A stretch of 64,000 bases of DNA from Clostridia bacterium. GTDB lineage: Bacteria; Bacillota; Clostridia; Christensenellales; Borkfalkiaceae. Position 1 is the first letter of the stretch, and each line of letters begins with the position of its first letter. The stretch spans positions 22,842-86,841 of the forward strand of contig JAFVQM010000011.1 of assembly GCA_017504795.1 (NCBI GenBank), in the 5' to 3' direction. Positions 2,928-54,245 of the stretch are shown here, piece after piece. The notes beneath the pieces were generated by a model. It was given only the letters and a program-made list of their open reading frames with translations, made no database searches and was not told where the DNA came from. A program made the position numbers and the translations under genes.

Positions 2928-2954
2928 ACGTTTTATGACAAATTTTTTGATTTT

Positions 2955-2993
2955 TTTTAAGAAAAAAACTCCCGCTTTAATCAAACGAGAGTT
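2955..2993 (-). terminator. intrinsic terminator (copy a of a duplicated 32-nt hairpin)
   Basis: Minus strand: AACTCTCG-tttgattaaag-CGGGAGTT then TTTTTTT. The stem has a G-U pair on the minus strand but a C-A mismatch on the plus strand. Confidence 0.7.
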
Positions 2994-3020
2994 AAATTTT
3001 GTATGGTTGTTTTTTAATTT

Positions 3021-3108
3021 ATAAAGCCTATTGCAACTTAATTAAGACACTAGAAACAAGCAAGACAAGGCTCGCCTAGACGAGTGGTTGCAATAGACCT
3101 TTTTGGTG
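3021..3108. repeat. modular repeat family, partial unit (no 3' terminal repeat)
   Basis: aaagcctat..ttaagacactag..caagacAAGGCTCG-[ctcg cctaga cgag hairpin]-..GACCTTTTTGGTg. Shares boxes with the units at 8693 and 24481. Confidence 0.7.
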
Positions 3109-3136
3109 TTATTATAACGAGAGTTTATTTTTATAT

Positions 3137-3209
3137 GTATTTTAAGACGCCAGTTTGGGTATTAGGCTAGGCTCACTTTGGCGATAGGCTGAGTTAGACC
3201 TTTTTGGTC
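3137..3209. repeat. modular repeat family, degenerate unit
   Basis: Starts gtATTTTAAGACGCC (same motif as the 3' end of copy 52899-53025). Contains AGGCT boxes and ends GACCTTTTTGGTC. Confidence 0.55.
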
Positions 3210-3213
3210 AATG

Positions 3214-3244
3214 AAAAAACTCCCGCTTTAATCAAACGAGAGTT
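3214..3244 (-). terminator. intrinsic terminator (copy b, 32/32 identical to 2962-2993)
   Basis: aaaaaactcccgctttaatcaaacgagagtta. The minus strand gives the stem plus T6. Confidence 0.7.
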
Positions 3245-3257
3245 AGTTTTAACCTGT

Positions 3258-3387
3258 ATTTTAAGGGCTTAGTTACAAGTTAGGCGAGGCGTTTGGGTTT
3301 TTGCGGAAGGGAGCGACCTTTTTGGTCGTAGGAATTTCGCAAAAACACAAAGAACAAAGCATAACGCCGTAAATAAGACCTTAAAAT
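3258..3387. repeat. modular repeat family, complete 130-nt copy with 19-bp terminal inverted repeats
   Basis: 5' ATTTTAAGGGCTTAGTTAC (3258-3276) versus the reverse complement of 3369-3387, ATTTTAAGGTCTTATTTAC (17/19). Internal helix 3295-3305/3338-3348 encloses hairpin cgaccTTTTTggtcg (3314-3328). Overlaps the stop codon at 3381-3383. Confidence 0.8.
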
Positions 3388-4643
3388 TTAATTTTTCGGC
3401 ACTCTATGTAATAACGCTTGTCGTACGCGTGACCTATTGAGAAGGTTTTTCTGGGGAGTGCACCGTCAAATATAACCGTTTTGAAAAGTTGAGATTTTTC
3501 CATACCGCTGAAAATAAAGCCGATAGCACCTTCTTTACTTGCAAGCGCTTTAACGGAATCTACGCCGTGGATATAGTCAACTTCGCCACCGTGTTTTTTG
3601 ATGTAACCGTCAATAAAGTCTTGCAAAGTACCAACGGTAAGTTGTTTTTCGGGGCTATTTACTACTACGGTTTGAGAAGTTTCGCCTACTATACACTCGA
3701 TAGTTTGCGCCGTTTCACTACCCTTTACGCTGTTAGCGTAGGCTTTAAGTTCTTCAATAACGTTGCTAGGCGAAACGCCAAACATAACGCGATAGATAGG
3801 CTCGAATTCGAGCGCGTCGTCGTGAAGGTTGGTAATTTCCACGAGAGCGTATCTCGACGGATGATTTTTAGCAACTTCTTCGCCTAACTTTTCTTTAATT
3901 TCAAGGTAAGAAGTTCTTGCCGTTGCAAGCGAGTGATTACCGTCACCCACCGCGAATAAGAGTTTTGACGGAGCGTTTTTACCGTATAATCTCTCGGCGT
4001 TTTCGTCGCTAATTATATCGCTAAGGGCGGAAGTAATTTTATCAAACCTGTCCTTTATAAGATAGCCTTTTACGCTACCGCCACCCTGCATCAAGGTAAA
4101 GTCGTAAATCTTTTCAAGGCTTTCTTTTTTATCGGCGATAGGCTCGATAACGGTCTTTTTATCGTCGTCAATAAGCACCATTATATGCGGTGATTCGATA
4201 GACGCGTCACGCCTAACTTTAACTCTTGGCGGAATTCTTTCAAGCACCGTGCCTTCGGTTGCACGGATAAGCGAAGTTGAACCCTTTGAAAAGTCGTAAT
4301 CTTCAAGGTCAACCATAGCGATAAGACCGCGCTTAACCCTACCGTCACGCTGTAATCTTTCGGTATATATCATAGAGTTTTTGTACGTTTTGAGAACGCT
4401 TTTTTCATACTCTAACATTTTTTGGTTTACTTTGGGGATAATGGTATCGGAACTAGATAAGTAAACTTCGGGAATAATAATTGATAAAGTAGAAGGGCTA
4501 TCCCCTACTATCTTTTTAGTTTCTTCCCAGTATTCTGGTTCGCTAGTATACTGGTCACACGCGATAACTGCCCATTTTTGCCCGTCAACAACGCTAAAAT
4601 CGGGCAACATAATATCTGCGGGGTAACAAGGTATTTTATTCAT
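3381..4643 (-). CDS. DUF1015 family protein
   Basis: ORF 3381..4673. GDGNHS motif and overall layout resemble DUF1015. Start set at MNKIP, which is preceded by AAGGAG. Confidence 0.6.
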   Translation of the reverse strand: MNKIPCYPADIMLPDFSVVDGQKWAVIACDQYTSEPEYWEETKKIVGDSPSTLSIIIPEVYLSSSDTIIPKVNQKMLEYEKSVLKTYKNSMIYTERLQRDGRVKRGLIAMVDLEDYDFSKGSTSLIRATEGTVLERIPPRVKVRRDASIESPHIMVLIDDDKKTVIEPIADKKESLEKIYDFTLMQGGGSVKGYLIKDRFDKITSALSDIISDENAERLYGKNAPSKLLFAVGDGNHSLATARTSYLEIKEKLGEEVAKNHPSRYALVEITNLHDDALEFEPIYRVMFGVSPSNVIEELKAYANSVKGSETAQTIECIVGETSQTVVVNSPEKQLTVGTLQDFIDGYIKKHGGEVDYIHGVDSVKALASKEGAIGFIFSGMEKSQLFKTVIFDGALPRKTFSIGHAYDKRYYIECRKIKF

Positions 4644-4695
4644 AGTAACTCCTTTTTTATTGCAATTACCCACTCAAAAGAGTGGGTAAAAACTA

Positions 4696-8593: not shown

Positions 8594-8621
8594 ATTATAG
8601 AAATTATTGTTAAAATTTGAA
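8594..8621 (-). promoter_or_regulatory. candidate promoter of minDE (TTCAAA-16-TATAAT)
   Basis: Minus strand: TTCAAAttttaacaataatttcTATAAT, about 30 nt upstream of the minD start. Confidence 0.4.
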
Positions 8622-8632
8622 TTTTTTTGTAT

Positions 8633-8663
8633 AAAAAAACTCTCGTTTATTAAGCGAGAGTTT
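8633..8663 (-). terminator. intrinsic terminator (AAACTCTCG...CGAGAGTTT stem)
   Basis: Minus strand: aaactctcg-cttaataaa-cgagagttt followed by TTTTTTT. Confidence 0.7.
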
Positions 8664-8692
8664 ATTTGTTAAATTTGCCTATTATAACTTAC

Positions 8693-8820
8693 ATTTAAGG
8701 GCTTAGTTACAAGCAAGACAAGGCTCGCCTAGACGGGTGGTTAAATAGACCTTGTTGGTCATTGCAGACACACGACGACGGCAGAAACGAAGTACTCGCG
8801 CCGTAAATAAGACCTTAAAT
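8693..8820. repeat. modular repeat family, complete 128-nt copy with terminal inverted repeats
   Basis: 5' ATTTAAGGGCTTAGTTAC (8693-8710) versus the reverse complement of 8803-8820, ATTTAAGGTCTTATTTAC. AAGGCTCG plus ctcg-cctaga-cggg hairpin, then GACCTTGTTGGTC. Overlaps the stop codon at 8815-8817. Confidence 0.8.
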
Positions 8821-10176
8821 AATTTCTGGAAGTGATGCAGCGGCTATCGACTGCCCTACGCGCTTATTAGACTCGTCAGGCATAGAAAGGCTAATAGACG
8901 AATATTTTGGGAATTCTTCGTCTAATACTTTTCTTGCGTTATCTAAAATGATATCGCCACCTTTACCAGACGTTACGCGCCCTAAAAGTAGCGCGTGCTT
9001 GATATCGTAAAATTCGCTGTAATATGCGAGCGTGTAACCAAGATAAATACCTATGCACTCGTAGATTTTTTTAGCCATTTCATCGCCGTCAGCCATAAGT
9101 TTTTGAATAACTTTCAACTTTTCAGCAGGAGATAAACCGTCTTCAAACTTAAAGCCTGCGTTTTCGGCAAGTTTAATAACGCTGTCTTGCGAGAAGTATT
9201 TTACACCGCAACCGTAGTCGCCCGACCACTCGTCAACCATAGCGTCTTTATTATAATCAACGGGTGCAAAAGCGAGTTCGTTAAGCCAACCTTCTAAACA
9301 GCCTTCGCGGTTGATGTAGCCTACCGCTTCGCTAGTGCCCATAGCGATACCGAGTACTGCGGTATCTTCAAGGTCGATAGCGCCTGCGAGCGCTGTAACG
9401 TCACCGTCGTTAGCAACTTCGATAGGTGCGCCTATTTCTTTTGCGATATCTAAATACATCGTTTTAACGTGCTTTTCAAAATCTTCTTCGGGAACTTTTA
9501 TAAAAAGCGACGCTACCATTATTTTATTGTCAACGTAAACGCCGGCAGAAGATACACCGATAGCGTCAACCCTTGGCATTTTGCTTGCTGCGGTCTTCAT
9601 AGACTCCATAATGCCGTTATACTGATAGTGCCAGTCAGAATTGAGTTTGGGGTGCCAAACTACTTCTTCACTGTAAACTACTTTACCGTCGATAACGGCG
9701 GAAACCTTTCTATCTGAACCGCCCGCGTCAAAACCGATACGGCACCCGTCTAAATGACCGCCAACTTTAAGCGAGCAACTCTTTTTTTCAGGGAACTCTT
9801 CATAAGAAACTTTAACTACTTCGAACGGTCTTTCATATACGCCCGACATAAACTTTTCGTCAAATGCGCGTTCGCCCGTTTTTGAGTATGCCGATTTAAT
9901 TCTATTATAGATATAATCGTCACCAGCGATATAAATTTTATAACCGCCCGCTACCCACAAAATAGTTTTGATAATTCTTTCGGCTACGCCGTAGTTTTCT
10001 TCTTTTTTATTTTCGTCTGCAAAAATTTGAAGGTCGTAACAAAAGTTATAACCTTTATTTCTTTCAACGCAAATTTTTAATAACTTGCTTTCTTCTTTTT
10101 CAACGGCTTTTCTAAAATCGTTGAGTTTAACGATCATAGGATAGTAATTTTTATCGTAGATAGGTGTGAATTTCAT
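8815..10176 (-). CDS. ROK-like / ASKHA-superfamily sugar kinase family protein
   Basis: GFDAGGSD and ANDGDVTALAGA motifs. Start moved to MKFTPIY, which is preceded by GGAG. Confidence 0.55.
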   Translation of the reverse strand: MKFTPIYDKNYYPMIVKLNDFRKAVEKEESKLLKICVERNKGYNFCYDLQIFADENKKEENYGVAERIIKTILWVAGGYKIYIAGDDYIYNRIKSAYSKTGERAFDEKFMSGVYERPFEVVKVSYEEFPEKKSCSLKVGGHLDGCRIGFDAGGSDRKVSAVIDGKVVYSEEVVWHPKLNSDWHYQYNGIMESMKTAASKMPRVDAIGVSSAGVYVDNKIMVASLFIKVPEEDFEKHVKTMYLDIAKEIGAPIEVANDGDVTALAGAIDLEDTAVLGIAMGTSEAVGYINREGCLEGWLNELAFAPVDYNKDAMVDEWSGDYGCGVKYFSQDSVIKLAENAGFKFEDGLSPAEKLKVIQKLMADGDEMAKKIYECIGIYLGYTLAYYSEFYDIKHALLLGRVTSGKGGDIILDNARKVLDEEFPKYSSISLSMPDESNKRVGQSIAAASLPEII

Positions 10177-10249
10177 AAGTGTCTCCATAAAACAAAATTA
10201 TTCGCTTATATATTAGCATAATCTTTTACAAAATAAAAGGCTTTTCACG

Positions 10250-22406: not shown

Positions 22407-23054
22407 TTAATCTTTGAAAAACGGTAGTCGAACGACAATGGGAACTATTATAAATAAAAGGGCGTAATTTACTATGCAGTTAAAAATTTGCCCCTTGAAA
22501 ATTAGGCGGTATAAAACGTAGCCTAAAAAGGAAACGTCACCCCCGAAAAGTTCCTTAACGTAGTTGATAACGGCGGTTGAAAAACCCATTTTATAGTTGT
22601 AAAAATAAAAGCCGGTTGAGTTTATTAAAACCGTTCCAAATATAAAAGAAGATATGCATATTAGCAGTAATTTTACGGCTAACCCACCTTTGAATTTGAA
22701 GTTTATAAAGTAAAATATAACGCCTGATAGTAGCGCTGTAACGCCCGAAGTCAAGCCAACCCAAGGCATATAGGTATACCCCCACGAGTTTATAATAAAC
22801 CCGATAGCGTCACCTATCACGCACGCGCAAAAACCACTGCCACCGCCTATGAGTATCCCTGATAACATAGATAGTAGCAAGGTTATTGAAAACTGCACGT
22901 CTGAAAACTTAATTTCAAGTAGCGTATTGCAAACGATAAGTACTGCCGTTATAACCGCGATATACGCTATTTTTTTCGTGGTGGTTTTGCCTTGTATAAT
23001 AGGCGAAAACACAAACTTTTCCCACAATTTTTTACCGCTATTATTTTTTTGCAT
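22407..23054 (-). CDS. folT: ECF transporter S component, folate family (FolT-like)
   Basis: 215-aa multi-TM protein directly downstream of a THF riboswitch. Confidence 0.7.
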   Translation of the reverse strand: MQKNNSGKKLWEKFVFSPIIQGKTTTKKIAYIAVITAVLIVCNTLLEIKFSDVQFSITLLLSMLSGILIGGGSGFCACVIGDAIGFIINSWGYTYMPWVGLTSGVTALLSGVIFYFINFKFKGGLAVKLLLICISSFIFGTVLINSTGFYFYNYKMGFSTAVINYVKELFGGDVSFLGYVLYRLIFKGQIFNCIVNYALLFIIVPIVVRLPFFKD

Positions 23055-23102: not shown

Positions 23103-23206
23103 ATTAAAGCGGACGCGCCCTCCCACCGCAACGGCTACCGCCGTTTTCGTTTAAGGACGACATCCCATTCCTTAACACTTAACGCAATCGGGCTACTCTT
23201 TAATTT
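23103..23206 (-). promoter_or_regulatory. THF (tetrahydrofolate) riboswitch aptamer
   Basis: Minus strand: UUAAAGAGUAGcccgauuGCGUUAAGUGUuaaggAAUGGGAUGUCGUCcuuaaACGAA...GCGCGUCCGCUUUAA. Matches conserved blocks of the E. siraeum THF riboswitch as recalled, with compensatory stem changes. Confidence 0.85.
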
Positions 23207-23971: not shown

Positions 23972-24345
23972 TAAAAGCGTTAATATCTGCAATTTTAAGC
24001 CTGCTAGTTGTCGTGGGCGCAAGTTTGTTCGAGCAAAACTATCTTAAAAACTCTTTTGGCGAGTTCGAGCGCGCGGTTAGTGTAACTTATGAAAAAACTC
24101 AAAATCACACCGCCGTTAAAGAAGACGTTTTATCCGTTCAAGACCTTTGGGTTGAAAAGAAAAAAACTCTTCATATATTTATTCCGCACAACGATATAAA
24201 AGAAGTTGATTTATGGGTGTCAGAAGCCGTAACGCTAGTTGAAAACGAAAAGTGGGAAGATGCGCTTTCTAAACTCGAAGTAGTTCTTGAAATGGTAGAA
24301 CAAATACCTAAAACCTACTCACTCAGAATTGAAAACATACTATAA
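23968..24345 (+). CDS. small membrane-anchored protein, DUF4363-like
   Basis: 125 aa, overlaps the DUF421 stop. This pairing is common in Clostridia (from memory). Confidence 0.5.
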   Translation: MIKALISAILSLLVVVGASLFEQNYLKNSFGEFERAVSVTYEKTQNHTAVKEDVLSVQDLWVEKKKTLHIFIPHNDIKEVDLWVSEAVTLVENEKWEDALSKLEVVLEMVEQIPKTYSLRIENIL

Positions 24346-24369
24346 AAACCGCCCTATCAGCGGTTTTTT
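24344..24369. terminator. bidirectional intrinsic terminator
   Basis: aaaaaccgc-cctatca-gcggtttttt. Confidence 0.75.
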
Positions 24370-24423
24370 ATATTTATTGCTTATATTTGCATTTATTTAT
24401 TATTAACTTTACACCTATACGTT

Positions 24424-24453
24424 CTTATAGTCATTTTGACTATAAGGTTTTTT
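24424..24453 (+). terminator. plus-strand-only hairpin + T-run immediately upstream of the repeat array
   Basis: cttatagtc-atttt-gactataag followed by gtttttt. There is no T-run on the minus strand. Confidence 0.5.
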
Positions 24454-24480
24454 ATGTTTACCTTTACTTTTATTTTATAA

Positions 24481-25055
24481 TTTGCCTATTTTAACTTGTA
24501 TTTAAGGGCTTAGTTACAAGTATATCAAGGCTCGACACAAAGCGTGGTTGACACTAACCTTTTTGGTTATCGAAGTTCTACCTAATAAAGCCTATACTAA
24601 CCGATATTTTAAGACCTTAGAAGCAAGCAGAACAAGGCTCGCGAAGTTTACGGGGTGAGATAAACCTTTTTGGTTACCGAAGTTTACTTAATAAAGCCTA
24701 TACTAAGCGATATTTTAAGGGCTTAGTTACGAGTATATCAAGGCTCGACACAAAGTGTGGTTGACACTAACCTTTTTGGTTATCGAAGTTCTACCTAATA
24801 AAGCCTATACTAAGCGATATTTTAAGACCTTAGAAGCAAGCAGAACAAGGCTCGCAAAGTTTACGGGGTGAGATAAACCTTTTTGGTTATTGAAGTTTAC
24901 TTAACAAAGCCTATACTAAGCGATATTTTAAGGGCTTAGTTGCAAGTATATCAAGGCTCGCAAGGGCTTGCGGACAACACTAACCTTGTCGGTTGTGGTG
25001 GTCGTAAGACCGAAGCAGTTAACGAAGATATACGCCGTAAATAAGACCTTAAAAT
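24481..25055. repeat. tandem array of 5 units of the modular repeat family (A1-B1-A2-B2-A3 + 3' terminal repeat)
   Basis: Unit starts at 24481, 24587, 24693, 24800 and 24906 (106-107 nt). The A/B dimer period is 213 nt. A1 vs A2 is 98/100 identical and B1 vs B2 is 96/100. The last unit ends with gtaaataagaccttaaaat (25037-25055), overlapping the sigE stop at 25049-25051. Confidence 0.9.
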
Positions 25056-25747
25056 TTGAAGTCCTTTTTCAACCGCTCTACTATCTTTTTCTCTAACCTA
25101 GATATGTAAGACTGCGAAATGCCAAGAAGGTCTGCAACTTCTTTTTGGGTAAGTTCGTCTTCACCGCCTAAGCCAAATCTAAGATGCATAATTTGGCGCT
25201 CTCTAAAATTAAGTCTTTCTAAGGCTCTGCGTAGAATTTTACGCTCTTCGTTTTCTTCTTGGTGCTTGTAAACGATTTCAGGGTCCGTACCCAAAACGTC
25301 ACTAAGAAGAAGTTCGTTGCCTTCGTAGTCTACGTTTAAGGGTTCGTCTAAGGATATTTCACCCTTTATTTTAGAAACCTTTCTTAGATGCATTAAAATT
25401 TCGTTTTCGATACAGCGTGACGCGTACGTTGCGAGTTTAATTTTTTTGTCCATATTAAAGGTGTTAACCGCCTTTATAAGCCCTACGCTACCTACGGAAA
25501 TCAAATCGTCAAGGTCGACGCCGGTGTTATCAAACTTTCTTGCAATATACACGACTAGGCGTAAATTATGCTCGATTAAATCTTTTTTAACGCTACTATC
25601 ACCGCTTTCTAAAAGTTTTAACTTTTCGGTTTCTTCTTCGGTAGAATACGCCATTGGAAGAGTTTCGCTACCGCTTAAATAGTAAAGCGAGTTTTGTGTT
25701 TTGAAAACGGTTTTTATTAAATTTTTAAGTTTTTCTATAAAGTTCAT
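25049..25747 (-). CDS. sigE: sporulation sigma factor SigE (pro-sigma-E)
   Basis: Close match to recalled B. subtilis SigE blocks: [47 protein letters not shown] and [12 protein letters not shown]. Follows spoIIGA. Confidence 0.9.
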
Positions 25748-25757
25748 ATTCTCACCT

Positions 25758-26570
25758 TTACACGAGCGACGGATGAAGTAACAACTCGTACGAATTACTG
25801 TTAAACCCGAACGGGCTAACGCCTATAAGTACGTTATTAAATATATTCACTTTTATCCCGTTATATATCAAAAGCCTATCAATAACGTAAAGTTCCATTT
25901 GCGAAGTTCCGCTTACCGTGTCGAAATTGATTTTTGAAATGCTTTTTTTAACGTTACTACCTTTAAGTTTTTCAAACAGCGAGTTAGAACACACTATAAT
26001 CGGCAACCCCGATTTTGTATCGTATAGCCCGTTTCCGCTATCTATAAAGCCTTTTACTATAAACTTTTTTTTATCGATAATTATAGCGCAAGTTCTTAAA
26101 AACGGGCGTAAGTTTCGCTCTTTTAATAGTTTGGTAACGGCAAGCACTACCCCTTTACTTGCAAGGTATACAAGTAGCGCGGTTACCCCTATTGGAACTA
26201 CGCTATCGTAACCAGATATAAAGTAGTTTTCATAGTCAATCATAGCAAGGTTAAATAGCGCGATTATGAACCCACCGCATAAAAAGGTAAAAAAAGTAAA
26301 TAAAAATACCGCAAAAAAGTATTTTTTTATGGATATATACTTTCCACCAACTAAGGTTATTAAAAAGGCAAGCGTTATCTTTATTATTAAAAGAAAGGTG
26401 TTATCTAGGCTAAATAGCGGTAAAATAACTGCAATAACCGTTCCTAGTAAAGATGCAAGTATTAACCTTAAAAAATTGGTTTTTACAAGCGCGCACCTAG
26501 TTGCCGTTTTTATAAGCAGATAGTTTATTATAAGGTTATCTAAAATAGCGTATTCGATATACACGGTCAT
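25758..26570 (-). CDS. spoIIGA: sigma-E processing peptidase SpoIIGA
   Basis: 270 aa. N-terminal TM helices plus a C-terminal GFIDSGN aspartic-protease motif, immediately upstream of sigE. Confidence 0.85.
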
Positions 26571-26643: not shown

Positions 26644-27354
26644 TTATTCTTCTATTTTGAAAGTAGTTTTCTCGTCACCAACGTTTTTCATATCTTCTGG
26701 CATAAACTTATTATCGTGCGAGTCGGCGTACTTATCTTTCCCTGCGGGAACGCCACCGTTTGAGCAGTGCTGTGCCGTAACCGTGCCGAGATTTCCTTTC
26801 ATATCGACTACAACTATTTCTCTTACCTTACAGTTGCTAGAAAAACTAAACCTTAACTGACCGTAAAAGCCGTAATCGTTAATCTTTAACCCGTCTTTTT
26901 TATCCGTTTTGTAAACTCTAAACCACCCGTCGTCACTATTTTCCTTGATTTTCGATTTAGAATACGTTATTTCGGATAGGTATTTAGACTTACCTTCCCA
27001 ACCGGTTGATAGATATATTTTTAATTCGTTATCGTAAACGTCGGATAAATTTATCCAAATTTCTTTAACGTTTTCGCTGTTTGTAGTGCCGATTTTAGTA
27101 TTTATGCAAGAATAGTGTTTTTCGCCCGTTTCTATGCTTTTTTGGATTTGAACTTGATAGTAACTGTTTGGCGTATCTTCCCCGTCGAACGAGCCGAATA
27201 TCGTAGACAATGCAAACCTATGATAAACTTTGGGGTTTGCAGGGGCAAAAGTATCAAGAACGAAAAGGCTTGCCACTAAAAATACCACTATCGCCATTAC
27301 CATAGCAAATACTTTTAGATTAAATTTTTTGGCTTTTTTAACTTGTTTTTTCAT
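26644..27354 (-). CDS. hypothetical membrane-anchored/exported protein (236 aa)
   Basis: ORF 26644..27453 trimmed to MKKQVKKAKKFNLKVFAMVMAIVVFLV (signal/anchor). Starts 1 nt after the nrdR stop. Confidence 0.55.
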   Translation of the reverse strand: MKKQVKKAKKFNLKVFAMVMAIVVFLVASLFVLDTFAPANPKVYHRFALSTIFGSFDGEDTPNSYYQVQIQKSIETGEKHYSCINTKIGTTNSENVKEIWINLSDVYDNELKIYLSTGWEGKSKYLSEITYSKSKIKENSDDGWFRVYKTDKKDGLKINDYGFYGQLRFSFSSNCKVREIVVVDMKGNLGTVTAQHCSNGGVPAGKDKYADSHDNKFMPEDMKNVGDEKTTFKIEE

Positions 27355-27355
27355 A

Positions 27356-27808
27356 TTAACCCTTTGAAAGTTTTTCAAGTTCGCGCATAAAGGTAGAAAT
27401 ATCTTTGAAAGAACGGTAAACGGATGCAAATCTAACGTATGCAACTTCGTCAATCTCTTTAAGACCGTTCATAACCATTTCGCCTATTTCTTTTGAAGTA
27501 ATTTCTTGGTCGAGCGAATTGTAAACTTGTTTTTGAATATCTTCAACTAAATTGTCAATTTTGAACATGGGAACGGGGCGCTTTTCACACGCTTTTATTA
27601 TACCGCTTTTGATTTTGCCCGCGTCAAACATCTCACGCGTACCGCCGTTTTTAATAACTAGAACGGGCGTGGTTTCGACCGTTTCGTAAGTGGTAAAACG
27701 CCTACCGCAACCTATACACTCACGCCTACGGCGTATCATAGTATTTTCGTCAGTTGACCTTGAATCTATAACTTTACTTTCAATGCAACCGCAGTACATA
27801 CACTTCAT
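27356..27808 (-). CDS. nrdR: transcriptional repressor NrdR
   Basis: MKCMYCG...zinc ribbon plus ATP-cone. Start set at MKC, which is preceded by GGGAGAG. Confidence 0.9.
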
Positions 27809-27891
27809 AAAGATACTCTCCCTATATAGTCCTACTATATATTGTAACACTTTTTAATAATTTTGCAAGTATTTATATTAAATTTAGGCTT

Positions 27892-37656: not shown

Positions 37657-37683
37657 AAAAAAACTCTCGCCTAGCGAGAGTTT
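37657..37683 (-). terminator. intrinsic terminator (AAACTCTCG...CGAGAGTTT stem) abutting the first in-frame ATG of the patatin ORF
   Basis: Minus strand: aaactctcg-ctagg-cgagagttt, then TTTTTTT, then ATG. Confidence 0.65.
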
Positions 37684-37688
37684 AATTT

Positions 37689-38381
37689 TTATTCGAAAAA
37701 TATTTGAGCGTTGTTTATAAACAAGTTGTCCGCAACTATTTTGCCAAACTTTTTGCATACTACCTTGTACGCATCGTTTAACGAGCATTCGCGCGATTTG
37801 TGAATATCGGTTGCAACGAAATGAACTAGCCCACTTTTTATCGCCGCAAATACGCGTTTTTGAAACTTTTTGCCGTGCTCACCTACTACGCTTGACGCGT
37901 TTATCTGCAAAAGCGCGCCCATGTGGTGAAGTTCAATTAAAGTATCCGCATCAAGATAGCGGTATCTTTCAATATGCGCTATCACGGGAACGTAGCCCAT
38001 TTGCGATATATTGTAAGCGTAATCTAAAATGTCAGAATAATTAAAGTAGTCGAACTCTAAAAGGATAAAATTTGTATCGTTTATGGTTAAAACTTCTTTA
38101 TTTTTAAGTAACGTGTATATTTTTTCGTCACAAAACACTTCTTGACCAAGGTATAGTTGAACGTTTAACCCATGGCTTTTTACTTCCGCACAAAACGTAT
38201 CGAACTTATCTTTGAGCTCCGATTTCGTAGTTTTATATACGCCGTGTTTATAATGCGGTGTTAAAATGATTTTTGAAACGCCTTCAAGTTCTAATTTTTT
38301 AATAAGGTCAATAGAACCGTCAAGCGAGTCACTACCATCGTCCACAAACGGCAAGAGATGAGAGTGAACGTCAATAAGCAT
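37689..38381 (-). CDS. tyrosine-protein phosphatase, CpsB/YwqE (PHP) family
   Basis: MLIDVHSHLLPFVDDG start. Confidence 0.85.
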   Translation of the reverse strand: MLIDVHSHLLPFVDDGSDSLDGSIDLIKKLELEGVSKIILTPHYKHGVYKTTKSELKDKFDTFCAEVKSHGLNVQLYLGQEVFCDEKIYTLLKNKEVLTINDTNFILLEFDYFNYSDILDYAYNISQMGYVPVIAHIERYRYLDADTLIELHHMGALLQINASSVVGEHGKKFQKRVFAAIKSGLVHFVATDIHKSRECSLNDAYKVVCKKFGKIVADNLFINNAQIFFE

Positions 38382-52830: not shown

Positions 52831-52861
52831 AAAAACTCTCACTTTCCGTGAGAGTTTTTTT
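52831..52861. terminator. bidirectional intrinsic terminator (AAACTCTC...GAGAGTTT stem)
   Basis: aaaaactctcac-tttcc-gtgagagttttttt. Confidence 0.75.
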
Positions 52862-52898
52862 AATTTATTGAATTTATATTAGCCTTTTTTATGTGACC

Positions 52899-53025
52899 TT
52901 TTAAGGCATATTAAACGAGTTAGACGAGGCGTTTGCGATTTTTTGGAAGGGAGCGACCTTGTTGGTCGCAGGAATTTCAAAAAACGCAAAGAACAATGTA
53001 TAACGAAGTTTAAGACGCCTTAAAA
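52899..53025. repeat. modular repeat family, complete 127-nt copy with variant terminal inverted repeats
   Basis: 5' TTTTAAGGCATATTAAAC (52899-52916) versus the reverse complement of 53008-53025, TTTTAAGGCGTCTTAAAC (16/18). The body is homologous to 3258-3387, with helix 52935-52945/52978-52987 around gcgaccTTGTTggtcgc. Encodes the last 5 codons and the stop of clpX. Confidence 0.8.
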
Positions 53026-54245
53026 ATAACTTCGGGTTTCTTATTACCTTTTATAACTTCTTCGTCTATTATAACTTTTTCGGCGTTTTCGCTTGGGATA
53101 TCGTACATACAGTCAAGCATAACGTTTTCAAAAATAGTGCGTAAGCCACGAGCACCAGTTTTTAATTCAATTGCCTTTTTAGCAATTTCGTAAACGGCAC
53201 CGTCGGTAACTTCTAGGTCGCACTCGTCCATACCGATAAGTTTTTTATACTGTTTTACAAGTGCGTTTTTAGGCTCAGTCATAATCTTTACGAGCGCAGT
53301 TTCGTCAAGCGGATCTAAACAAACGGTTATTGGCACTCTTCCAACAAATTCGGGAATTAAGCCGTATTTGGTTAAATCGCCGGGCTGAACGTCGTTAAGT
53401 ACGGCAGTATTACCGCCATTTTTACCGTTAACGTTACCGCCAAAACCTAGACTAGACGCGTCCTTTCTCTTTTCAATAATCTTGTCAAGCCCAACGAACG
53501 CGCCACCGCAAATAAATAAAATGTTGGTGGTATCTATTTGAATAAGTTCTTGTTGGGGGTGCTTTCTTCCGCCTTGCGGTGGAACGGACGCTACCGTTGA
53601 CTCAATAATTTTAAGTAGCGCTTGTTGAACGCCTTCACCAGAAACGTCACGCGTGATGGATACGTTTTCGCTTTTTCGTGCAATTTTGTCAATCTCGTCG
53701 ATATACACGATACCGCGTTCTGCACGAGCCACGTCGTAATCGGCGTTTTTGATAAGTTTAAGTAGAATATTTTCTACGTCTTCCCCGACGTAGCCTGCCT
53801 CGGTGAGCGTTGTCGCGTCAGCCACGGCAAAGGGAACGTTTAATATCTTAGCAAGCGTTCTTGCAAGCAAGGTTTTACCCGAACCCGTAGGGCCTAAAAG
53901 CAAAATGTTAGACTTTTCTATCTCGGTAACGTCGTCACTTTCGCCTTTGAGTTTGGCGTTTATTCTTTTATAGTGGTTGTAAACCGCAACCGATAAAACC
54001 TTTTTGGCCTTATCTTGACCAACGATATAGTTATCGAGTTCTTCTTTTATTTGCTTGGGTTTTTTAAGTTCTACTTCTTCTACTTCAACTAAATTTTCTT
54101 CTTCTAAAATGCTGTTGCAAATTTCCAAACACTCGTCACAAATATAAAGTCCGTTAGGACCTGCAACAAGTTTATTTGCAAGTTCTTTGGGTTTACCGCA
54201 GAAGGCGCAATATAGTCCGTTATTTAAGTTTTCGTTGTTAGCCAT
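53010..54245 (-). CDS. clpX: ATP-dependent Clp protease ATP-binding subunit ClpX
   Basis: N-terminal zinc finger CAFCGK...[12 protein letters not shown], and an IGF-type loop region. Confidence 0.95.

Follow-up and report, generated by a model that had tools for sequence, protein, structure and literature searches.

The tandem array 3' of sigE in a Clostridia genome as a probable stack of copies of a dispersed hairpin repeat found at stop codons

The tandem array that lies directly 3' of sigE in the window (the whole 64-kb stretch of Clostridia DNA analysed here) is a real feature. It is most probably, with roughly two chances in three, a stack of five copies, one intact and four decayed, of a dispersed hairpin repeat of ~127 nt. 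The units of the array belong to a family whose copies lie directly after the stop codons of many unrelated genes in these gut Clostridia, and this distribution points to a new dispersed-repeat family, not to a dedicated sigE regulator or a small-RNA gene cluster. At the same odds, the array is a repeat stack of the REP/BOX/ERIC kind in the sigE 3' UTR, enlarged by a recent duplication of an AB dimer.

The array occupies positions 24501-25053 and consists of five head-to-tail units in the order A-B-A-B-full. The five units described in the first-pass annotation were all recovered by repeat searches, and the fifth turned out to be the full-length element. Tandem Repeats Finder reports a period of 213 over 24501-24960 (2.2 copies, 96% matches, score 864) and a period of 106 over 24501-24994 (4.6 copies, 75%), and the 213-nt dimer period noted earlier was also recovered by a second repeat search, with a dimer identity of 97%. 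In global alignments, the two B units are identical at 102/106 positions (96.2%), in line with the earlier estimate of 96/100, and the two A units at 103/107 (96.3%), for which 98/100 had been slightly high; A and B units share ~83%. A semi-conserved leader of ~20 nt, TTTGCCTATTTTAACTTGTA (24481-24500, plus strand), precedes the first 5' arm. It is related to the motifs GCCTATTACAACTTGTA and GCCTATACTAAGCGATA that precede 5' arms elsewhere, and its overall conservation is weak. All units lie on the plus strand. Unit A1 (24501-24607) has a 5' arm, a central part, the apical hairpin AACC-TTTTT-GGTT and a degenerate junction without the 3' terminal arm, and it matches positions 2-82 of the family HMM. 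Unit B1 (24608-24713) has the same architecture, again without the 3' arm, and belongs to another subfamily (TTTAAGACCTTAG...CGCGAAGTTTACGGGG); it matches HMM positions 2-81, and its nearest intact relative is L020:1744-1872, with a match that extends to just beyond the apex. Units A2 (24714-24820) and B2 (24821-24926) are copies of A1 and B1. The strings specific to types A and B read as they had been described, the junction motif AAAGCCTATACT is present at four junctions of the array, and the 3' terminal repeat is indeed confined to the last unit (24927-25053). This intact element, an imperfect palindrome of 127 nt, adopts the fold of a single long rod hairpin and matches HMM positions 1-130 (E 7e-33). 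Its 3' arm, ...CGCCGTAAATAAGACCTTAAA, is complementary to the 5' arm and terminates in TTA, which is the sigE stop codon on the opposite strand. Thus, sigE (25049-25747, minus strand, 232 aa, Sigma70_r2/r4), which has spoIIGA upstream (25758-26570), ends with a TAA at 25049-25051 that falls within the terminal TTTAAG of the element. A CRISPR array was dismissed from sequence, since the 106-nt units are homologous throughout and lack a repeat-spacer structure, and so was a Type III toxin-antitoxin (toxI-like) array, since no toxin ORF follows.

The element spans ~124-127 nt between outer TTAA cores, forms a single long imperfect palindrome and holds no ORF. Between its 5' arm, TTTAAG(GG/AC)CTTAG..., and its 3' arm lie a variable middle and the conserved apical hairpin RACC-TTKTY-GGTY; the inverted termini pair as TTTAAGRSCTTA... 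with ...TAAGNCCTTAAA. It is found at three further loci of the window, four in all and in a single shared orientation, at ten loci in four MAG species (Christensenellaceae/Clostridiales; at least four species) and, in one metagenome, in 44 contigs. The family HMM gave 106-119 matches in 317 kb of related DNA, 59 of them full length. A second array in the window (3040-3387, plus strand) has partial units at 3042-3107 and 3141-3219, each followed by a terminator-like hairpin, and then an intact element at 3259-3387 that overlaps the stop of a DUF1015 gene (3381-4673, minus strand). A single intact element at 8694-8820 (plus strand) overlaps the stop codon of a gene at 8815-10188 (minus strand), whose terminator at 8634-8668 lies beyond the element; the orthologous locus L038 shows a different arrangement. 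Another single intact element, more diverged, overlaps the 3' end of clpX (element 52899-53026, plus strand; clpX 53010-54245, minus strand). The host genes in the window, namely DUF1015, a protein of unknown kind, sigE and clpX, are unrelated. Rfam 15 gave no gathering-score match in the array when the whole window was searched, and with E values up to 10 over 24300-25200 the best match (E = 0.089) is to an unrelated model and lies outside the array. Searches for tRNA and tmRNA genes found none, blastn in distant mode gave no phage or plasmid match, the family pattern had 0 matches in viral contigs, and nothing specific was found in the literature on a Christensenellaceae repeat or a stop-codon-abutting Firmicute repeat. 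In being short, non-coding, multi-copy and bounded by terminal inverted repeats, the element agrees with a generic MITE or small dispersed palindromic repeat. It adds a Clostridia (Christensenellaceae-like) member to the small dispersed palindromic repeats and explains why breaks at gene ends are frequent in assemblies from these gut Clostridia.

The family follows a placement rule. At 42 intact ends, the stop of a convergent ORF (counted if at least 80 aa) is located at -17 to +45 nt, mostly within 10 nt, and the 3' arm is directed towards the gene in 42/42, with none in the opposite orientation. The terminus of the element itself supplies the TAA stop in 14 of these 42 cases, sigE among them, and TAA is the stop codon in 41/42 element-bearing genes compared with 45/57 in the background (p = 6e-4). 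The copies occupy the short spacer between the stop codon and the terminator of the gene. A terminator-like hairpin stands beyond the element at 34/51 loci, and 30 of the 34 can act in the gene direction (21 both directions, 9 gene-sense only, 4 plus only, 17 loci with none). The use of terminator orientation as proof of the transcribed strand was abandoned as weakly informative, because most flanking terminators are bidirectional. Read in the gene direction, a TTTAA or a longer T-run stands before every copy, and at least three copies directly follow a terminator T-run. The selfish repeats BOX, RUP and SPRITE have an orientation bias of about 61-63% (PMC3049150). The orientation lock of the present family is far stronger; tolerated insertion downstream of genes does not explain it, and this counts against the preferred reading.

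The hairpin is conserved across the family. The rod has 41 pairs, in which 86.8% of cells are paired compared with 26-45% when the partners are slid, and 29/41 pairs have changed on both sides in a compensatory manner. The covariation score of 0.429, compared with 0.157 in shuffles, was reached by 0/500 of them. The strand that folds better is the plus strand, antisense to the host gene, in 54/58 intact elements (mean -41.0 vs. -34.8 kcal/mol). On this strand, purine-purine mismatches outnumber pyrimidine-pyrimidine ones by 217 to 55, with 63 G.U against 42 A.C, and the purine-purine mismatches stand at fixed positions whatever the subfamily (e.g., G.A/A.G in columns 8-9/128-129, G14.A123). 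A better fold of the antisense strand is unexpected if mRNA is the only relevant molecule, and it also counts against the preferred reading. At sigE, the intact element reaches a minimum free energy of -42.7 kcal/mol on the plus strand (z -4.2) and of -35.2 kcal/mol on the minus strand (z -3.3). Neither the A nor the B units exceed shuffled sequence in folding stability (z -0.59 to +0.64; A1 -0.14 and -0.19, B1 +0.64 and -0.59 for the two strands). Pairing of the leader with the next 5' arm, which would place TTTTAAG in a loop, was tried and rejected (native -8.72 kcal/mol vs. -8.66 ± 0.18 permuted).

Decay of the distal units and turnover of copy number are observed. The gene-proximal unit is intact in every case, and extra copies lie on its far side, lack the gene-side arm and are more diverged; solo 5' arms number 59 and solo 3' arms 2, and distal 5' arms score 28.1 vs. 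32.9 bits against the family model (p = 0.004). Clustered units are all direct repeats, and intact-intact tandems elsewhere abut directly without a leader or a promoter-sized spacer. At orthologous gene ends, the copies belong to different subfamilies and share the same boundary on the gene side. As for sigE itself, its 3' end has 0 (L064), 1 (L010, L056, L065), 2 (L061/L062) or 5 units of different subfamilies. These relatives have SigE proteins 87-93% identical; free variation in unit number is among the outcomes that the first-pass annotation itself had named as counting against its proposal. L064 (SigE 87% identical) has no element at sigE or in the surrounding 5.7 kb and is the one empty sigE site, too diverged to fix the boundaries of the element. 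The suggestion that the array stands where sigG follows sigE in other spore formers proved wrong, because a convergent DUF4363 gene comes directly after sigE in L064 and L065 too, with no element in the former and one in the latter. A tempting false lead is thereby removed for annotation: the array is neither a sigE-linked riboregulator nor a replacement of sigG. Searches for a transposase, a recognizable target-site duplication and a clean empty site of recent date were negative; mobility is therefore deduced from distribution and turnover only. The element termini are palindromic (TTAA within T/A runs), and a target-site duplication would look like part of the inverted repeat. No solo long element, that is, an autonomous partner IS with the same ends, was seen at the loci examined, and exact-protein look-ups of clpX and of a 457-aa gene for strain-level empty sites returned the source contig or no match.

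In the preferred reading, one intact copy abuts sigE and supplies its TAA, and four gene-distal copies from subfamilies A and B would have lost their 3' arms. The decayed part would then have been doubled when the 213-nt AB dimer was recently duplicated, probably through slippage or unequal crossing-over. The whole stretch may be co-transcribed with spoIIGA-sigE as a 3' UTR of ~700 nt. The first terminator-like structure that a sigE transcript would meet, ~680 nt past the stop, is a G+C-rich hairpin at 24344-24371, which follows an A-run, precedes a T-run and terminates the convergent DUF4363 gene; an orthologous hairpin exists in L056 and L065. A stable hairpin, beginning at the stop codon, would be formed by the intact copy only, and by analogy with REP, ERIC, Correia and BOX it may influence how stable the upstream mRNA is or how it is processed, or act on the ribosome during termination. 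For the decayed units, the status of passengers is most likely. Elements are found at the same gene ends in several species, which suggests possible retention by selection as against repeated insertion and counts against this reading.

Several known repeats resemble the element in part. BOX of S. pneumoniae is a small non-coding composite repeat of a Firmicute, whose complementary ends form a stem when transcribed, whose internal modules vary in number between strains by unequal crossover, and which is enriched downstream of coding sequences (PMC3049150). The element shares with it the complementary ends, a variable tandem module and the position downstream of coding sequences. However, the repeated module here is the 5' arm plus apex, i.e., a truncated whole element, whereas that of BOX is a separate middle box; the repeated units here come from different subfamilies, the element abuts or supplies the stop codon, and its orientation to the gene is ~100% compared with ~61% in the description of BOX, which sets the two apart. 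Thus, of the boxA-(boxB)n-boxC organization proposed earlier, the single 3' arm holds but a distinct boxB module does not, as the units are truncated whole elements of two subfamilies. ERIC/IRU and Correia (CREE/NEMIS) act on mRNA stability via RNase E or RNase III (PMC3049150, PMC2229807). Like the element, they are dispersed imperfect palindromes of ~100-155 nt (ERIC 127 bp) that can form long RNA hairpins. They lie in transcribed intergenic regions of proteobacteria in both orientations, and in Correia an IHF site and a TA duplication accompany terminal inverted repeats of 26 bp, whereas the element is set apart by an additional asymmetric leader, by stacks of direct repeats from which only one arm is lost and by a positional rule at the stop codon. 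REP/BIME/REPIN structures are thought to be recognized as folded single-stranded DNA (PMC2817692). REP and the element are both high-copy extragenic palindromes at gene 3' ends that form higher-order clusters, but REP sequences are 20-40 nt long, carry a 5' GTAG and alternate in orientation in BIMEs. The element is a single 127-nt rod with GTAG in 0/58 and copies all direct, and no RAYT gene was seen at the loci examined; membership in REP/BIME was therefore rejected. SPRITE is another Firmicute repeat concentrated near the 3' termini of coding sequences (PMC3049150), with an 18-bp stem followed by a U-rich tract as in a terminator. The element has no U tract after its stem; it has a T-run before and an A-run after, and separate terminators follow. 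Three properties, namely the near-complete orientation lock, a hairpin that starts at and often supplies the stop codon, and the one-sided erosion of older copies, have not been reported together for REP, BOX, ERIC or Correia.

A rather improbable alternative is a new type of gene-end-specific, orientation-locked hairpin element, a folded single-strand substrate that follows the attC logic without the cores and outside integrons. An enzyme would insert it at the T-run/TAA boundary of ordinary chromosomal genes; each new copy would arrive beside the stop codon, displacing the older ones, which would erode from one side, so that the sigE array would be a stack of successive insertions. It is also conceivable, though improbable, that the elements are folded single-strand DNA substrates of a structure-specific recombinase or HUH nuclease, following the logic of attC, REP/RAYT or IS200/IS605 ends. 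Entry of new copies would take place next to the stop codon, at the T-run/TTTAA boundary, older ones would be pushed away and lose the gene-side arm, and the sigE array would record repeated hot-spot entry plus one duplication. The integron attC sites, including the 123-126-nt VCR of Vibrio superintegrons, are imperfect palindromes 3' of an ORF with fixed orientation and in tandem arrays; their structure is more conserved than their sequence, and they have conserved unpaired bases. The element is of similar length, is also an imperfect palindrome directly 3' of an ORF and is fixed in orientation at all 42 ends. Its structure is kept while subfamily sequences vary, with the purine-purine mismatches retained at the same positions, and the constant gene-side boundary at orthologous gene ends, the sequence preceding each copy and the excess of solo 5' arms with its decay gradient all suit such a mechanism. 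Against it, the attC cores RYYYAAC/GTTRRRY occur in 0/58 on either strand, the REP hallmark is equally missing, and neither an integrase nor another recombinase gene was seen at the loci examined. Instead of cassettes, the hosts are housekeeping genes at scattered chromosomal positions, and integrons are not known from this phylum. The direct orientation of all copies also differs from the alternation in BIMEs. IS200/IS605-derived elements (PATE) insert without duplication on the 3' side of a fixed tetra- or pentanucleotide, bear subterminal hairpins at both ends and are strand-biased with respect to replication. In the present family, a TTTAA or T-run precedes each copy and the four window loci are co-oriented; however, there is one long palindrome in place of two subterminal hairpins, and the loci examined showed neither a TnpA nor a TnpB gene. 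Moreover, the better-folding strand is the transcription template strand, which for genes co-oriented with replication would not be the lagging-strand template that IS200/IS605 uses. If it is the mechanism of insertion that gives rise to the three properties, an undescribed system of structure-specific recombination could be reached by way of this family.

It is less probable still that the intact hairpin is a host-selected 3'-end device, spread by gene conversion without transposition, and that the array tunes the expression of sigE or spoIIGA. Such a device could be an mRNA stabilizer, an entry site for RNase III or Rho, or a brake on the terminating ribosome. The same genes bear the element across species (sigE, L011/L014, L029/L034, L022/L037, L013/L051 and the window gene at 8694 with L038), the gene-proximal copy is always intact and shows compensatory evolution, and a ribosome terminating at the stop could reach the base of the hairpin, which is 0-10 nt away. 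The placement is comparable to that of REP elements in E. coli, which reportedly lie no more than 15 nt from stop codons (Liang, Rudd and Deutscher, 2015). On the other hand, the close relative L064 has no element at sigE or in the surrounding 5.7 kb, copy number and subfamily vary freely, no function is common to the host genes, the mRNA-sense strand has the less stable fold, and no sign of a sigE-specific role was seen. If the three properties reflect selection, the family would offer a natural collection of stop-codon-proximal hairpins in which the control of mRNA at its 3' end could be studied in an uncultured lineage.

It is very doubtful that promoters in the leader or the junctions give rise to plus-strand small RNAs that run in the direction of the sigE 3' end and are partly antisense to it. 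The better fold of the plus strand, with its excess of G.U over A.C and of purine-purine mismatches, speaks for it, and the TTGAAG-16-TATACT reported at 24890-24917 is present in unit B2 with 9/12 matches. However, 9/12 is reached at 1/4 junctions, and promoter-like matches are about twice those of shuffles (5 vs. 2.2 expected). No conserved -35/-10 was found before 52 independent first units (at most 0.6 bit per position); the upstream regions show weak T/A preferences, and the sixth position of the -10-like hexamer varies. No plus-strand terminator was found after the array or within the units, so that a plus-strand transcript would continue into sigE antisense. Together with the chance-level folding of partial units, the lack of an Rfam family, the direct abutment of intact tandems without leaders and the variable unit number, these results leave the multi-unit sRNA and the antisense transcript to sigE, both suggested in the first-pass annotation, unsupported, and a tandem sRNA gene cluster, in which each unit has a promoter, a stable fold and a terminator, was rejected. 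Of the three readings offered there, the expanded MITE comes closest, as the elements are a dispersed palindromic family with complementary termini, and the 3' UTR array is right as to position but not in the rest.

A short-read mis-join or repeat mis-count is highly improbable as the origin of the five units: the window is ENA contig k141_19875, a MEGAHIT k141 metagenome assembly with a 213-nt period longer than k, and, of the six assemblies that contain this SigE, four break within or just before the array (21-208 nt after sigE), but in the independent sample L004 the 505 nt beyond the sigE stop, which take in all of units 2 to 5 and a portion of unit 1, are identical bar one mismatch, the two dimers differ at 8 positions and could thus be ordered by the assembler, and arrays of partial and intact units are the norm for the family across many other contigs. 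The exact dimer number is a count from short-read assemblies throughout.

Beyond the gene-distal end of the array, the plus-strand hairpin with T-run noted earlier, TTATAGTCA-TTTT-TGACTATAA (24423-24453), is present, with the terminator at 24423-24447; it would insulate a plus-strand transcript of the array. The palindrome of this hairpin recurs at two other loci, in other contigs.

The tandem array lies immediately 3' of sigE (ORF 25049..25747, minus strand; spoIIGA ORF at 25758..26570). Tandem Repeats Finder reported it with a period of 213 (24501-24960, 2.2 copies, 96% matches, score 864) and of 106 (24501-24994, 4.6 copies, 75%), and a repeat search found four units spaced at 106/107/106 nt, the 213-nt dimer being 97% identical. 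Two unit types alternate on reading the sequence, type A (TTTAAGGGCTTAG...CGACACAAAGYGTGGTTGACACT) and type B (TTTAAGACCTTAG...CGCRAAGTTTACGGGGTGAGATA). The array units share the junction AAAGCCTATACT, and only the fifth, intact unit (24927-25053) ends in ...CGCCGTAAATAAGACCTTAAA; the TAA stop codon of sigE (25049-25051) is inside the terminal TTTAAG of this last unit. In global alignments, A1 and A2 are identical at 103/107 positions, B1 and B2 at 102/106, and A and B at ~83%. The array is real, and a second assembly reproduces it: contig k141_19875 from ENA (L001) is identical to the window, and L004, from an independent sample, agrees over 505 nt past the sigE stop with one mismatch. Four further contigs with identical SigE end 21-208 nt past the gene, which is expected for a repeat in short-read assemblies. 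The array, with its alternating types and junction motif, is as the first-pass annotation had described it. Also present are the promoter-like TTGAAG-16-TATACT that it had placed at one junction (24890-24917, 9/12 matches) and its plus-strand hairpin with T-run upstream of the array (24423-24447); another hairpin is found at 24344-24368.

All five units are members of a dispersed family of imperfect palindromes. Further copies in the window, all in the same orientation, are an array of two partial units and one intact unit (3040-3387) and elements at 8694-8820 and 52899-53026. An HMM built from the four intact copies of the window gave 106 matches (59 full length) in the collected related material. 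A 20-nt 5'-arm pattern matches ten loci, spread over four species-representative MAGs (labeled Christensenellaceae or Clostridiales), and a degenerate 30-nt family pattern is matched by 44 contigs of one metagenome and by no viral contig. The array matched no Rfam family, a tRNA search gave none, and a phage/plasmid similarity search with the element found none.

The intact element spans 124-127 nt between outer TTAA cores and is predicted to fold as one long rod (plus strand: -42.7 kcal/mol, z -4.2 for 24927-25055; -46.3 kcal/mol, z -7.0 for 3259-3387). Across 58 aligned element sequences (alignment A1, a name distinct from unit A1), 86.8% of alignment cells are paired in the 41-pair rod, compared with 26-45% after a shift of the 3' partners by 1-3 columns. 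Changes on both sides occur in 29 rod pairs, for example TT/AA versus AA/TT at columns 16-17/121-122. The covariation score is 0.429 versus 0.157 in shuffles; 0/500 shuffles reach 0.429, a count that is not a probability because the aligned copies are related. Given these shifted controls and the large number of double changes, the predicted hairpin is convincing. Invariant in the alignment are TTAA at each end, a TTAG within the 5' arm, C-AGG opposite AAC at an internal loop and an apical RACC/GGTY stem.

Placement was analyzed, using ORFs of at least 80 aa, in 42 cases (arrays or solitary elements) whose last unit is intact and whose flank is long enough. In these, the 3' arm faces a convergent ORF whose end is -17 to +45 nt away from it. 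The TAA within the element's TTTAAG serves as the stop codon in 14 cases, including sigE; in most others the stop is located 5-10 nt upstream, followed by a T-run leading into the element, and in three to four cases the element directly follows a terminator T-run. No ORF stop adjoins the other side of the element, where 53 nt or more separate it from the closest ORF end in the same direction. Host stops are TAA in 41/42 cases versus 45/57 window genes (p = 6e-4), and in the window the hosts are genes with no relation to one another (DUF1015, a 457-aa protein of unknown function, sigE and clpX). A terminator-like hairpin is found beyond the element at 34 of 51 loci (21 bidirectional, 9 in the gene direction only, 4 in the opposite only). 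Because the element abuts the stop codon on one side and such a hairpin usually lies beyond it, its place is the 3' UTR of the gene, between stop codon and terminator, and we infer that it is co-transcribed with the host gene.

The evidence on the strand is mixed. The host-antisense strand, which is purine-rich counter to the local skew, is predicted to fold better in 54/58 elements (mean -41.0 versus -34.8 kcal/mol), and on the common structure it has 63 G.U versus 42 A.C and 217 purine-purine versus 55 pyrimidine-pyrimidine mismatches. This asymmetry may reflect a founder effect (~8 versus 2 fixed mismatch positions) or a folded DNA intermediate. No conserved promoter was found upstream of the family elements, intact-intact tandems adjoin directly, and no terminator was found after the array in the host-antisense direction, so that an mRNA-sense transcript is the only one supported by the context. 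The same absences of promoter and terminator speak against a transcript antisense to sigE, one of the possibilities raised at first. A multi-unit small RNA, another of them, is disfavored by the absent promoter and by the A and B units alone, whose predicted folds are no more stable than those of shuffled sequence (z -0.59 to +0.64). As a separate observation, A-type 5' arms carry a good promoter-like match, TTGATA-18-TAAAAT (10/12), on the gene-sense strand (24954-24925 and 24741-24712, minus), directed away from sigE toward the convergent DUF4363 gene. Correia elements are known to generate promoters in a comparable manner.

The family often forms arrays, and these share one pattern, which the sigE array fits. 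The intact unit is the gene-proximal one, and units farther from the gene have lost their gene-side part from a variable point onward (HMM end 30-116). Over all loci there are 121 matches to the 5' arm versus 64 to the 3' arm, and solo arms number 59 and 2, respectively. Distal 5' arms score 28.1 bits against the family model versus 32.9 for proximal ones (Mann-Whitney p = 0.004). The A and B units resemble intact relatives to just past the apex and then degenerate (for example, B1 against the related locus L020), and when the region is folded as a whole, its only 3' arm is able to pair with several 5' arms. The AB dimers are 96% identical, which indicates that an AB pair was duplicated recently, after it had decayed. 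At the sigE loci of some relatives, a 7-10-nt remnant lies between the stop codon and the intact element (L010 ~300-311; L065/L066 ~3200-3210; L061/L062 ~3200-3212). It resembles the start of a further element terminus (TTTTAAGAC|TTAAGG..., TTTTAATCCG|TTTAAGG...), as though the end of an older copy had received a new one. In other species (L014 1517-1641; L011 37-150; L007 1767-1830 and 3838-3942; L012), a 47-nt hairpin, AAAAGCACCGACAGGCGTGTACTTTTGTACATAACTGTTGGTGCTTT, takes the place of the element's middle part; it is also found free-standing, as a terminator ~80 nt upstream, and these elements therefore appear chimeric.

SigE orthologs with 87-93% identity to that of the window were traced to their contigs, and the first-pass proposal to compare unit number among relatives could be followed up: none, one, two or five units come after sigE. 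L064 (GCA_054289745.1, JAZPFB010000018; 87%) has no family copy in 5.7 kb around sigE and no match to the 20-nt family pattern in its genome; a bidirectional terminator stands 12 nt past the stop, and next comes the convergent DUF4363 gene (37-nt spacer). The family thus has a patchy distribution across species that are close relatives. One intact element follows sigE in L010 (93%) and, from a different subfamily, in L056 (91%); L065 (88%) has one truncated copy, L061 and L062 (89-90%) one intact and one partial copy, L063, whose SigE protein is the same as that of L062, an element of yet another subfamily, and the window and L004 five units. All these loci have the same gene-side boundary (…AAATTTTAA). 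Likewise, between the element at 8694 and its ortholog in L038, the flanks and 5' arm are kept, the remainder is swapped for a new full element, and the gene-side boundary is unchanged. Judging from differing unit counts and subfamilies at a fixed boundary, the sigE 3' end is a hot spot that turns over rapidly. sigG is next to sigE in none of the compared genomes, whether the array is present or absent, so that the earlier remark on the array standing in its place loses its point.

The sigE array is best read as stacked copies, in the 3' UTR of sigE, of a small dispersed repeat resembling REP, BOX, ERIC and Correia elements; among the first-pass options, an expanded MITE comes closest to this. 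Pneumococcal BOX elements also have complementary ends and are enriched downstream of genes, and their internal module is tandemly repeated and varies between strains by unequal crossover (Croucher et al., PMC3049150). However, that module is a separate box, unlike in the present family, and the strand bias of the pneumococcal repeats is only ~61-63% (PMC3049150), whereas the present family is locked in orientation. The family has neither attC cores nor the REP hallmarks (GTAG, alternating orientation). Because of the orientation lock, the abutment to stop codons and the one-sided erosion, simple tolerance of insertions is insufficient as an explanation. These features leave room for a directional, structure-specific insertion mechanism, in which folded single-stranded DNA would be the substrate of a structure-specific recombinase or HUH nuclease and would enter beside the stop codon. 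The family is new and its placement rules are unusual; as a small dispersed repeat it is of a kind already known. If the stack affects sigE expression, 3'-end protection, RNase III processing and interference with terminating ribosomes would, by analogy with other systems, be candidate routes.

Several side observations were also made. A perfect palindrome with 9-bp arms, TTATAGTCA-N4-TGACTATAA, occurs near repeat elements in three unrelated contigs (window 24425-24445, L015 4558-4578, L040 3436-3456); in the window it is the plus-strand "terminator" (24423-24447) between the array and the DUF4363 gene, and it may represent an operator or a further small repeat. A near-identical terminator hairpin, AAAAACTC(T/C)CG...CGAGAGTTTTT, is found at many gene ends (window 2951-2999, 3202-3250, 8620-8668, 37660-37690 and 52832-52862; also L013, L036, L051 and L053), and its two copies within the 3040-3387 array share 86% identity across 49 nt. 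From this recurrence, the terminator stem itself acts as a repeat or moves together with the element. A THF (tetrahydrofolate) riboswitch (23105-23202, minus; 67.4 bits versus a gathering score of 36) lies upstream of an ECF-transporter S-component gene (22407..23054, minus; Pfam ECF-ribofla_trS/ECF_trnsprt in the identical contig L001), which is probably a folate transporter under riboswitch control. Finally, the ORF 26644..27453 (TTG start) overlaps the nrdR-like ORF 27356..27850 by ~100 nt (27356-27453); since it is called as 236 aa in the identical contig, its true start is probably further downstream.
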